A stretch of 64,000 bases of DNA from an uncultured Gammaproteobacteria bacterium (GTDB lineage Bacteria > Patescibacteriota > Microgenomatia > Daviesbacterales > UBA10151): the NCBI GenBank assembly GCA_964547465.1, contig CAZJNI010000006.1:2505-66504 (forward strand), read 5' to 3'. Positions 61,382 through 63,991 of this stretch are shown in pieces. The first letter of the stretch is position 1. The number at the start of each line of letters is the position of its first letter. Below the pieces are notes generated by a model, which was not told the DNA's origin, made no database searches, and worked only from the letters and a program-made list of their open reading frames with translations. The position numbers and the translations under genes are program-made.

Positions 61382-62786
61382 TTCCAACCATGTAGAAGGA
61401 TTGTTCGCTCTTTGAGTCATGTTTACCGTCCAAAATTTCTTTAAACATTTTTATTGTTTCTTTAATTGGCACATATTTTCCTTTTCTGCCGGTGAAAGTT
61501 TCCCCCACGAAAAATGGCTGGGTTAGGGCCCTTTGAATTTTTCTGGCCCTGGCTACAATTAACTTATCCTCATCCGATAGCTCTTCAATTCCCAAAATAG
61601 CAATAATATCCTGCAAATCCTTATATCTTTGCAAAACCTTTTGTACCCCAATTGCCACGCCGTAGTGTTCCTGTCCCACAACCTGTGGATCCAAAGCACG
61701 GGAGTTGGATGTCAGCGGATCAACAGCCGGGTAGAGTCCCTGTTCTGTTAAACCCCGATCAAGTGCAATTGTAGAATCCAGATGAGCAAAAGTGGCAGCC
61801 GGAGCAGGATCAGTGTAGTCATCTGCCGGCACATAAACTGCCTGAACTGATGTAATAGAACCTTTTTTAGTTGAAGTTATTCTTTCCTGAAGCTGTCCCA
61901 TTTCTGTTGCCAGAGTTGGCTGATAACCAACAGCTGATGGAATACGGCCCAGTAAAGCAGACACTTCAGATCCGGCTTGGGAAAACCTAAAGATATTATC
62001 AATAAAGAGCAAAACATCCTTACCCATCTCATCCCTAAAATATTCAGCCATAGTTAAGGCTGATAAGCCCACCCGCTGCCTTGCTCCGGGAGGTTCATTC
62101 ATCTGGCCAAAAACCATGGCGGTTTTATTTATAACACCGGATTGAATCATTTCATTGTATAAATCATTTCCCTCACGGGTCCGCTCGCCAACTCCGGCAA
62201 AAACGCTGTAGCCGCCGTGTTCTGCAGCAATATTTCTGATTAACTCCTGAATTAAAACAGTTTTGCCAACTCCGGCTCCTCCAAAAAGCCCGACTTTTCC
62301 TCCTTTAACAAAAGGTGCCAATAAATCTATAACTTTAATTCCTGTTTCAAAAACCTCACTCCTGACAGATTGTTCCTCAAATAAGGGAGCAGCTCTGTGA
62401 ATAGGAAGATATTTTTCACTTTTTACTTTTTCCTTATTGTCTATGGTATCACCTAAAACATTAAATAATCTTCCCAAAACTTCCTCACCAACCGGAACCG
62501 AAATAGGGAAGCCGGTATCTAAAACTGGAGTTCCACGCTTCAGCCCGTCTGTTGGTCCCATAGCCACAGCCCTAACTTGCCCTTCACCAAGATGCTGCTG
62601 CACTTCAAGTACCAACTTTGCTTGTCCCACCTCGGAGGTGGAGCTAAGATGTCTCCTGGATCGCACCTCCGAGGTGTGCTTAGGTAGTACTAACTCCAAA
62701 GCATTATAAATCTCCGGCAAACTTTTTGCCTCAAATTGCACATCAACAACTGCGCCTATTACTTGTGTTACATTTCCTTTGTTCAT
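61362..62786 (-). CDS. atpD: F0F1 ATP synthase beta subunit
   Basis: Walker [19 protein letters not shown]-like C-terminus, 474 aa; an extra approx 16-aa N-terminal insert is encoded by an IR element. Confidence 0.9.
62627..62678. repeat. Inverted-repeat element (cacctcggaggtg family) in-frame in atpD
   Basis: ccacctcggaggtggagctaagatgtctcctggatcgcacctccgaggtg; encodes [17 protein letters not shown]. Confidence 0.55.
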
Positions 62787-63046
62787 GTACCTATCCTTTT
62801 TCTAGCTTGACTTTCCGTGAGTGGCCATCTTTTTGCGACCATTAATCTTTGAGCATTTAGATGGACGTTACTTAAACGCAGCGCAGTCTCCATCCCTCCC
62901 CTAGTAACCAAATAACCATCTGCAATCCTACATATTATACCTTCAGTTTTGTCTCTTAATATCTTTAATTCTTGCCAAGACTTAGTCTCTAGTTTACGAT
63001 TCACTTGATCTCCAATTTTAATAACTTCTGTCATATTTTCTTTCAC
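62783..63046 (-). CDS. Small hypothetical protein between atpG and atpD
   Basis: 87-aa ORF whose stop overlaps the atpD start; no motif. Confidence 0.3.
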
Positions 63047-63077
63047 CTCCTAACAGGCAGGTTATCCTTTCTTACCC

Positions 63078-63144
63078 GTCATTCCCGCGAAGGCGGGAAT
63101 CCATAAATAATTATTAATGGATCCCGTATCAAGTACGGGATGAC
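63078..63144. repeat. RPE-like element (long form, TIR gtcattcccg/cgggatgac) in the atpG-downstream intergenic region
   Basis: gtcattcccgcgaaggcgggaatcc...atcccgtatcaagtacgggatgac, with two internal hairpins. Confidence 0.55.
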
Positions 63145-63151
63145 AATTGTA

Positions 63152-63991
63152 TCATTCCATTGCAGCTTGAGCGGTTGTGATCTCAAGCAACTCTCTAGTA
63201 ATATTTGCCTGTCTGGTCTGATTATAGCTAAGGTTTAAATCATCCACCAATTCCAGAGCATTATCCGTGGCATTTTGCATGGCAATCATCCTGGCAGAAT
63301 GCTCTGATGCTTTAGTTTCCAAAAGTGCCTGATAAATCTGTTCCTCAATATGATGGACTAACAGATAATCCAACAAAGCATCAGGAGCAGGTTCAAAGAG
63401 GAATTCAGCGTTTGTTACACCTCCGAGGTGTGAACCAGTCTTCTGCCCACTCTCACCTCGGAGGTAGGCGTCAGGGATGACAGATTGTAGATCTATTGGC
63501 AAAAGCTTAACCCTTTTTGGTTCTTGTCTTAAAGTGGACATAAAGTGAGGATAAACTAGGTATGCTTCTCCAATCTCTTTATTTTGGAAGGCTTCCATTA
63601 CCAACCTGGATAGTTGTTTAGCTTGTCTAAAAGTAACTGTATCCAGACTTTCGAAATCAGCTTTTAAATCCTTTCCAGTCCTGGCCACAAAGCTTCTGCC
63701 TTTTCTGCCTACTGTATAAAAATTTACGTTTACAAACCCGGTTTGTAGGTTCGAAACTGTTCTGATTAAATTTGTATTTAATGCTCCTACCAATCCTTTA
63801 TCCGTAGAAAGTAATACTATTCCCATTTTCCCGTCATTGCGAGTCCGCCCATTGGCGGGAGTAGCAATCTTATTTCCACCCAGCAGTGGATGAGCTTCCA
63901 CATCTACTGTAGGCAAAAGTCTCATCAATGCCTCTGACAAATTTTCCTGATATGGCCTGCCTGAGGTGGCCTGATTTTGGGCTCTTCTCAT
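63152..63991 (-). CDS. atpG: F0F1 ATP synthase gamma subunit
   Basis: N- and C-terminal helices (MRRAQ...ITRELLEITTAQAAME) with family-typical length; two in-frame repeat inserts. Confidence 0.8.
   Translation of the reverse strand: MRRAQNQATSGRPYQENLSEALMRLLPTVDVEAHPLLGGNKIATPANGRTRNDGKMGIVLLSTDKGLVGALNTNLIRTVSNLQTGFVNVNFYTVGRKGRSFVARTGKDLKADFESLDTVTFRQAKQLSRLVMEAFQNKEIGEAYLVYPHFMSTLRQEPKRVKLLPIDLQSVIPDAYLRGESGQKTGSHLGGVTNAEFLFEPAPDALLDYLLVHHIEEQIYQALLETKASEHSARMIAMQNATDNALELVDDLNLSYNQTRQANITRELLEITTAQAAME
63417..63466. repeat. Inverted-repeat element (cacctcggaggtg family) in-frame in atpG
   Basis: acacctccgaggtgtgaaccagtcttctgcccactctcacctcggaggta; encodes YLRGESGQKTGSHLGGVT. Confidence 0.55.
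63833..63869. repeat. RPE-like element (gtcattgcg family, short form) in-frame in atpG
   Basis: gtcattgcgagtccgcccattggcgggagtagcaatc; encodes the NDGKMG... insert on the minus strand. Confidence 0.55.

Follow-up and report, generated by a model that had tools for sequence, protein, structure and literature searches.

Why do adjacent genes for two F1 ATP synthase subunits each carry, in frame, a copy of the same short inverted repeat? The question arose in a 64,000-nt stretch of contig CAZJNI010000006.1 (assembly GCA_964547465.1, positions 2,505 to 66,504 of the forward strand), which is referred to here in its entirety as the window. In this window, atpD (F1 beta) and atpG (F1 gamma) were each found to hold two inverted copies of a 13-mer near-palindrome, CACCTC[G/C]GAGGTG, separated by a spacer. 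The window is low in GC (~38%), and the nearest relatives of its atp genes belong to Candidatus Daviesbacteria, of the Microgenomates within the candidate phyla radiation (CPR). An earlier note on this DNA had described a tiny nonautonomous repeat family, inserted in frame in both F1 subunits and tolerated in loops, and this description was borne out by the present analysis. Two further points that the note had missed are likely, namely (i) that the repeats are REPIN-like doublets, that is, pairs of repetitive extragenic palindromes (REPs) that form a common hairpin; and (ii) that a transposase resembling the tyrosine transposases associated with REPs (RAYTs) is their driver. There is little doubt that the elements are dispersed, in-frame, translated hairpin repeats; the full account favored here, in which RAYT-like Y1 transposases drive these in-frame doublets of REPIN type, members of a REP superfamily with the consensus CACC-N5-GGTG, is probable.

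The four 13-mers in the two genes (Table 1) were the only matches in the whole window, compared with an expectation of 0 from 100 shuffles. They lie where the earlier note had placed two pairs of perfect 13-bp palindromes with spacers of about 25 nt; the description needs correction in that the symmetry is broken at the center base, with CACCTCGGAGGTG and CACCTCCGAGGTG being mutual reverse complements that differ at this base, in that the terminal atpG arm CACCTCGGAGGTA has one mismatch at its final base (A), and in that the spacer is 23 nt in both copies. The hairpin motif of the family is written here as CACCTCSGAGGTG. Complementarity between the arms is 13/13 in atpD and 12/13 in atpG. The 'both orientations' of the earlier note holds in the sense that the copies point in opposite directions, along the chromosome as well as with respect to the genes that host them, and the peptides that they add are those listed before, with 17 extra residues in beta (read from the minus strand) and YLRGESGQKTGSHLGGV in gamma. 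The atpG copy has the family's usual orientation in genes and the C..G configuration of its center bases, while the atpD copy is inverted, its center pair being swapped to G..C from the C..G that is usual (95 of 130 copies) with the 13-bp stem left intact. When the spacers were compared directly, only 8/23 positions were identical; the idea of constant arms around unrelated spacers was nonetheless rejected, since the reverse-complemented atpD spacer fits the family consensus ARNNNAAGGTGACAYCTGGATCA (18/23 against the copy in locus L008), as the atpG spacer does directly. Both copies thus belong to a subfamily with a 23-nt spacer (49-nt core, 51-nt unit). For both RNA and DNA the long doublet hairpin was predicted as the minimum-free-energy structure, at −31.7 kcal/mol for RNA and −15.8 for single-stranded DNA in the atpD copy (z about −5 to −6) and at −28.2 and −17.4 kcal/mol, respectively, in the atpG copy.

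Both copies are true insertions relative to the nearest orthologue and to solved F1 structures, the two comparisons that the earlier note had proposed. The nearest orthologous locus (L002, 85% nucleotide identity) was found to be without either insert, with a clean 19-codon gap in the atpD alignment. Solved beta subunits have no counterpart of residues 36–54, residues 60 and 61 of the 6yny chain being contiguous, and the solved gamma subunit 9itj_G has a 14-residue gap beneath the insert, just before the conserved (Y/F)xxEP. The Pfam barrel profile agrees, as 87 AtpD residues span 69 profile positions. In an AlphaFold model of AtpD, which has a mean predicted local distance difference test score (pLDDT) of 60 and was used for the well-predicted N-terminal barrel only, residues 37–54 are unstructured (pLDDT <50) between strands 28–33 and 57–67. 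The gamma insert occupies a variable loop, and directly after it comes the conserved (Y/F)L(F/Y)EP, the lead-in to the C-terminal helix. The Pro-Lys junction codons next to the atpD unit are kept in all atpD copies of the insert (window, L001, L202, L203, and L205) and are probably the native Gly-Lys of the loop, though they are counted in the 19-codon gap against L002.

A genome scan, performed on one genome per species for two 13-mers 10–40 nt apart, revealed at least 117 stretches with 130 doublets within them. Most were from Microgenomates, with hosts among the Davies-, Curtiss-, Roizman-, Beckwith-, Woese-, Levy-, Gottesman-, and Shapirobacteria, candidate division WWE3, and unclassified Patescibacteria. 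The elements are gene-free and 37–61 nt in size, and their spacer lengths cluster at 23, 11, 14, and 17 nt, 98 of the 130 being 2 mod 3. When the recurrent TA or TG behind the second arm is included, the unit measures 51, 39, 42, or 45 nt and is always made of whole codons; a GCT ahead of the first arm recurs in one subfamily. Identical or near-identical spacers (GTGTTGCGCCTGCGGCA, AAAAAATGCGATTA, AAAGAAGTTCA, and a 23-nt spacer of the type ...AAGGTGACACCTGGATCA) were found to recur across unrelated genes and genomes in both orientations, and the doublet is therefore copied as a unit. Beyond the exact 13-mer, the superfamily consensus is CACC-N5-GGTG, with a center that varies freely (CTTAA, CCCCG, CTCTA, and others). 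At one orthologous site, the 14-nt spacer of L077 (4310–4349) is inverted compared with that of L029, L055, L086, and L108 (taagcgcatttttt versus aaaaaatgcgctta) with unchanged arms and flanks, which may reflect either a flip of the loop between the inverted arms or reinsertion in the opposite orientation. Among the hosts are also low-GC metagenome-assembled genomes (MAGs; 36–46% GC) from binchicken and SRP co-assemblies that are labeled uncultured Gammaproteobacteria or Pseudomonadales (L013, L014, L029, L052, L055, L062, and others); these have insertion sites orthologous to those of Daviesbacteria and Patescibacteria loci, at 75–85% nucleotide identity. Both the element and a RAYT-like gene are also present in a MAG labeled 'Bathyarchaeia' (L118; also P0128). 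The MAGs with either kind of label are probably mislabeled or misbinned CPR sequence.

The arms were next considered for what is conserved in them. Between the window and L001, a locus that was found through protein homology and so provides an unbiased comparison, the arms are identical at 26/26 positions while the spacer retains 15/23 and the 150-nt flanks 72%; at 72% identity the probability of 26/26 is ~2e-4. Palindromy at the nucleotide level is thus kept in a related genome, where its absence was the outcome that the earlier note had regarded as contrary to a mobile element. Five distinct variant types were found in which 13/13 pairing between the arms is held although each arm's own palindrome is lost (arm pairs in Table 1). 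As the variants keep complementarity between the arms and lose the symmetry of each arm, the alignments suggest that what is conserved is the long hairpin of the doublet, a property of REPINs.

That the arms are far better conserved than spacer and flanks in orthologous copies could also reflect a host-selected signal, with spread being secondary. Here an mRNA hairpin, or Shine-Dalgarno/anti-Shine-Dalgarno strings (GGAGGTG / CACCTCC), would pace translation, stabilize the mRNA, or bind a host protein. The folded copies do have strong predicted hairpins (about −28 to −32 kcal/mol as mRNA and −14 to −17 kcal/mol as single-stranded DNA, z about −3.5 to −6), and the arm holds CACCTCC, which we take to be a string of the 16S rRNA 3′ tail. 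Shine-Dalgarno mimicry was set aside, however, since the freely varying center of CACC-N5-GGTG means that it is not a common property of the superfamily. Moreover, neither the host genes nor the positions within them are related, both orientations occur, the close relative L002 does without the elements, and an Rfam search of the elements matched no family. A host signal is therefore an unlikely explanation.

Evidence for a driver of the elements came from genes for Y1 transposases. Near the atp operon of L001 lies such a gene, and when its protein was used as a tblastn query, 6 of the 117 loci with elements proved to have a Y1 gene. That of L097 (candidate division WWE3) has 36-nt doublets of the exact 13-mer on both sides; that of L089 (Shapirobacteria) lies between direct copies that contain the 13-mer. 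A metagenome scan with a profile of the Y1 proteins added 80 loci. In 10 of these, the 13-mer (with no more than 1 mismatch) lies less than or equal to 300 nt from a gene end, typically 20–90 nt upstream and 7–37 nt downstream, and 5 of the 10 have it on both sides; only 4 arms were found in the remaining ~280 kb of these loci. When the search was widened to CACC-N5-GGTG, palindromes were detected upstream of 25 and downstream of 29 of 86 genes, concentrated among the closer relatives. The upstream layout is conserved as palindrome, ~6 nt, CTTGACACCTCGG, ~17 nt, a −10-like box, and ATG, where CTTGACACCTCGG includes a −35-like TTGACA that overlaps a half-site. The window itself contains a related element of the superfamily (25426..25482 in Table 1), laid out as AGGTG-ccaagctagtc-CACCCTCCAGGTG-gattacgttgg-CACCT, whose reverse complement holds strings that flank REPs at RAYT-like genes (AGGTGCCAACGTAATC-REP and REP-GAATAGCTTGACACCT).

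The proteins encoded by these genes match PF01797, with H82-F83-H84 and Y142 invariant, and their HUH and catalytic tyrosine motifs align with those of ISDra2 TnpA and E. coli TnpA-REP (4ER8). Their best family is NF047646, REP-associated tyrosine transposase (E 2e-12 to 2e-14; 47.2, 53.6, and 38.6 bits), compared with an IS200 score of 17 bits for the same proteins. The clade comprises 1,782 proteins at E ≤1e-10, which the source databases name just 'transposase'. Two further traits are suggestive only: (i) inverted half-sites (TTGA-CACCnnnn upstream, its complement downstream) bracket the RAYT gene in 8 of 14 loci, a count confounded by the full REP downstream; and (ii) the spacer of the 49-mer may be derived from the left end of the REPtron, as judged post hoc from a shared ...AGC(T)...TGACACCT-GG string. 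Many RAYT-like proteins of the clade (P0121–P0240) are known only from contigs of ~1–2 kb, which would fit assembly breaks at flanking repeats.

[quoted passage not shown] Inverted-repeat architecture, small size, and dispersed copies are shared with MITEs. However, the genes bracketed by the palindromes are of the Y1 (HUH) and not the DDE type, each arm is itself a hairpin-forming, REP-like palindrome, and no direct target-site duplication of at least 4 nt was found among 109 copies. Shorter flanking repeats were in weak excess in these copies (2 nt, 15 observed versus 9.2 expected; 3 nt, 5 versus 2.0). We regard the MITE explanation as distinctly unlikely.

The relationship of the elements to coding sequence was examined in the low-GC loci. 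Here, 88 of 98 copies (89.8%) lie within open reading frames (ORFs) of at least 100 aa, compared with 89.7% for random 49-nt windows, and coding DNA is thus not depleted of the elements. A scan of 79 host ORFs gave at least 131 Pfam families, of housekeeping proteins, with hosts including UvrD, UvrB, PurL, DinB, TopA, CCA/poly(A) polymerase, RF-1, DNA ligase, aminoacyl-tRNA synthetases, and other gamma subunits. The same element DNA is read in differing frames by gene, as HLRG(E/V)...HLGG or xTSEV...xTSEV (57 and 37 cases), with only 3 cases of the third phase, in which GGTG followed by A gives a TGA stop. The arms are stop-free in all six frames.

These statistics argue against the elements being untranslated, that is, cut from the mRNA or skipped by the ribosome so that the extra peptides would not exist. 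The size of ~50 nt and the stable hairpin may recall bypass elements, such as the 50-nt gap of phage T4 gene 60 and the mitochondrial 'byp' elements. Yet a skipped element needs neither a length of 3n (a multiple of three) nor an open frame, whereas 98 of the 130 spacers give 3n units and the used frames are stop-free with the TGA-generating phase nearly unused (57:37:3); in addition, no matching take-off and landing codons are found at the element ends. We therefore infer that the inserts are translated rather than removed, the contrary being very unlikely. Ordinary lineage-specific loop extensions with incidental palindromy, though in keeping with variable loops and with vertical inheritance in the subclade, can hardly be entertained when the same 26 nt occur in >100 unrelated genes in differing frames and on both strands, and when the arms are conserved at 26/26 where synonymous neighbors and spacer have diverged.

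The ages of the two window insertions were considered in relation to the earlier proposal of local transposition between atpD and atpG. The atpD insert is common to the window, L001, and L203, with the same LP(K/R)H-TSEV junction and the G..C configuration, and is half-deleted in L202; the atpG insert occupies one and the same position in the window, L202, and L203. From this sharing with other Daviesbacteria loci, both insertions are old and have been inherited together, so that there is no need to invoke local transposition. Two copies within 1 kb are about what the copy density allows (at least 4–7 exact doublets per ~1-Mb genome, counted in MAGs, and 2 in the 64 kb of the window). In other lineages, the same loops hold the family in the other orientation or hold other hairpin families. 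About 35 of 120 Daviesbacteria AtpD sequences (P0001–P0120) have an insert in this barrel turn, the loop after IYNALE(L/T), where at least 8 different insert families occur, with examples being SRHPERSEGS..PRND, RKSSIV..DKRQT, DSRLRGND, ESFAYNAAEGKK, VQSQKD..STQHS, and SLQFMV..ELQTSN. A similar picture is seen for the loops of atpG (L001, L204, and L205). The AtpD barrel turn and the atpG loops are insertion hot spots. Different hairpin families were also seen to abut within one loop, as ...LADRNDD-LHLHLGGVPQAQHHPRGG... in UvrB (L097, 2385–2427) and as gtcattgcgagcgaa adjoining the CACCTC doublet in the gamma loop of L203; by analogy with bacterial interspersed mosaic elements (BIMEs), this suggests nested or adjacent insertion.

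Several points weigh against the RAYT-driven REPIN account. No RAYT-like or Y1 gene was detected in the 64-kb window by tblastn or hidden Markov model search, so that the evidence for the transposase link comes from other CPR genomes. The scores of the RAYT-like proteins fall short of the NF047646 threshold in NCBIfam (80 bits), and the exact 13-mer is found at only a minority of the retrieved RAYT-like genes. The GTAG/CGTC tag (GT[AG]G or CGTC) is absent beside the 109 copies and the RAYT-adjacent palindromes, where nothing recurs but TA or TG behind the second arm and, in one subfamily, GCT ahead of the first. Similarity among the RAYT-like proteins does not track the center of the flanking palindrome (50% identity within a type and 48% between types). 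Since loci L005–L121 were chosen by exact arms, their arms are in part conserved by virtue of that choice. That the inserts are translated is read from the frame and stop statistics rather than observed. Lastly, in a rough and poorly resolved neighbor-joining tree of 121 AtpD sequences, the insert-bearers are scattered and not monophyletic, which calls for recombination, for precise loss on several occasions, or for several gains at a single site; dating of the atpD insertion by this tree was dropped for its poor resolution.

With these points in mind, the REPIN-like account can be set out as follows. Each copy would be a miniature mobile element of two inverted 13-nt REP-like near-palindromes (CACCTC-S-GAGGTG), a 23-nt spacer, and 2 trailing nt, and this 51-nt unit would fold as a hairpin with a 13-bp stem in single-stranded DNA or RNA. 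The whole doublet would be copied, most likely by a RAYT-like Y1/HUH tyrosine transposase that acts in trans and is presumably encoded elsewhere in the genome of the window. By analogy with IS200/IS605 and E. coli TnpA-REP, this enzyme would act on single-stranded DNA hairpins without target duplication. As CPR genomes are ~90% coding, most insertions would hit genes, and the surviving copies would be those with a length that is a multiple of 3 nt, no stop in the host frame, and a permissive surface loop as their site. The survivors would be transcribed and translated as 13–19 extra residues and then inherited vertically for long periods with their arms kept complementary. A broader reading, for and against which we find the case evenly balanced, is that REPIN-RAYT-type systems of CPR/Microgenomates have shifted to life inside coding sequence and that their repeats are shaped for it (stop-free arms and 3n units). 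On this same coding-adapted reading, families may colonize, and may replace one another in, the few permissive loops of essential proteins, being gained and precisely lost, as may be the case for the closest relative of the window atpD, which is empty at the site. If true, much variation in protein length in the smallest bacterial genomes, and breaks in their assemblies, would have a significant source that has so far gone undescribed.

Table 1. Positions of the repeat copies, their host genes, and other features of the window, with the co-varying arm pairs of other loci.
Feature	Position or locus	Strand	Description
atpD	61362..62786	−	F1 beta, 474 aa; insert is residues 36–54, in the turn between two N-terminal beta-barrel strands
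atpD repeat copy	62628..62678	−	49-nt core 62628–62676 plus 2 nt (62677–62678); 51 nt, 17 codons
atpD copy, first arm	62628–62640		CACCTCGGAGGTG
atpD copy, spacer	62641–62663		23 nt
atpD copy, second arm	62664–62676		CACCTCCGAGGTG
Junction codons	62679..62684	−	CCT AAG (Pro-Lys), 5′ of the 51-nt unit
atpG	63152..64000	−	F1 gamma; N-terminus lies beyond the window end
atpG repeat copy	63416..63466	−	49-nt core 63418–63466; the family's trailing TA at 63416–63417
atpG copy, first arm	63418–63430		CACCTCCGAGGTG
atpG copy, spacer	63431–63453		23 nt
atpG copy, second arm	63454–63466		CACCTCGGAGGTA
Related CACC-N5-GGTG superfamily element	25426..25482		In frame in a 574-aa membrane-protein ORF
Single 13-mer of the CACC-N5-GGTG superfamily	32009..32021		CACCCCTGGGGTG
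Co-varying arms	L205		CACCTCCCAGGTG / CACCTGGGAGGTG
Co-varying arms	L009, L097		CACCTCGGGGGTG / CACCCCCGAGGTG
Co-varying arms	L065		CACTCCCGAGGTG / CACCTCGGGAGTG
Co-varying arms	L070, L079		CACCTCGAAGGTG / CACCTTCGAGGTG
Different 13-mer near-palindrome doublet	40852–40883		CAAGGTCGGACCTT-ggtt-AAGGTCCGACCTTG; in frame, peptide KVGPWLRSDLG
Mur-ligase-like ORF	40565..41833	+	422 aa; host of the doublet at 40852–40883
Further palindromic family	63826–63868		gtcattgcgag...ctcgcaatgac type; in frame in atpG as KIATPANGRTRNDGK
Two hairpins	63075–63150		gtcattcccgcgaaggcgggaatcc and ggatcccgtatcaagtacgggatgac, between atpG and the next ORF
Intergenic region	63054–63159		Sub-threshold Rfam match to FtrB small RNA, 37 bits versus a gathering score of 66
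Small ORF	62783–63046	−	87 aa, without Pfam match, kept between atpG and atpD
atpC	58333–58773		Parted from atpD (61362) by several opposite-strand genes, including a Pro_CA_2-type gene

Other hairpins of the window are listed in Table 1 as observations in their own right. The doublet in the Mur-ligase-like ORF has a G/C asymmetry at its center as in the CACCTC family, and the site of the further palindromic family in atpG has a related insert in L001 and none in L002. With regard to gene order, the small ORF between atpG and atpD is present as 66–96 aa in L001–L004, L203, and L205, which is unusual for an atp operon, and the split between atpC and atpD is also found in L003, L202, L204, and L205.

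The wider meaning of the family lies in where it resides. REPINs and RAYTs are seen as inhabitants of roomy proteobacterial genomes that live outside genes; here, the same logic is found inside the genes of ~1-Mb CPR genomes, showing how selfish or domesticated hairpin repeats persist with almost no intergenic DNA. The family explains many odd loop insertions or 'low-complexity' peptides in CPR annotations (HLRGE..HLGGV and TSEV..TSEV, and probably SRHPERSEGS..PRND and others), and alignments and phylogenies of marker proteins, AtpD among them, can be led astray by inserts of this kind. With a hairpin of 13 nt and an enzyme of 210 aa, the family is also a tractable biochemical case for REP mobilization. 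A literature search of the library available to the analysis found no paper that joins RAYT or REPIN with CPR, Patescibacteria, or Microgenomates, and a search for the 13-mer found none either.

Among known systems, in-frame palindromes in genes have several precedents. Rickettsia palindromic elements (RPEs; Ogata et al. 2000) are reportedly in-frame palindromic repeats that are translated in many housekeeping genes and found at protein surfaces. Unlike the family described here, RPE-1 is ~100–150 bp, has no known transposase, and occurs in another phylum, and there is no sequence relationship. The IS200/IS605 enzymes recognize single-stranded DNA hairpins and insert and excise seamlessly; their TnpA-Y1 proteins (ISDra2 2XM3 and IS608) are of the same transposase superfamily as the RAYT-like proteins (profile match E 0.0075, HUH and Tyr aligned). 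These insertion sequences differ in being multicopy with their own transposase between the hairpin ends, whereas the present elements are gene-free at 37–61 nt. Intragenic REPs have been described in other phyla as 'REP-decorated proteins', with in-frame singles or dimers that encode about 20–30 aa, many of them in genes for replication and repair (Di Nocera et al. 2013, PMC3733652), and tnpA-REP genes of subclass 2.4 contain in-frame REPs as well (Quentin et al. 2018, PMC6006769). Replication and repair genes (UvrD, UvrB, DinB, TopA, and DNA ligase) are likewise hosts of in-frame copies here; however, the intragenic REPs of those phyla are a minority of a mainly intergenic, GTAG/CGTC-tagged population, while here the intragenic location is the rule.

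The closest likeness is to REPIN-RAYT systems, in which REP doublets that form hairpins are mobilized by RAYTs (Bertels & Rainey 2011, PMC3116915; PMC5581495). Shared with these are (i) inverted short palindromes that form a hairpin around a spacer; (ii) the doublet as the replicating unit; (iii) several subfamilies with complementary arms; (iv) Y1/HUH genes bracketed by the same palindromes; and (v) the absence of target-site duplication. The family differs from them in location, since REPs are extragenic by definition and depleted from genes, whereas here 90% of copies lie in ORFs, as at random, and the extragenic location of a REPIN does not apply. It further differs in its 13-nt palindrome without a GTAG/CGTC tag, its 3n unit lengths, its transposase clade under the curated RAYT cut-off, and its CPR hosts. 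Overall, the architecture and the link to a transposase are of an already known kind, REPIN-RAYT, and what sets the present family apart is the intragenic form, the CPR hosts, and the divergent transposase clade.

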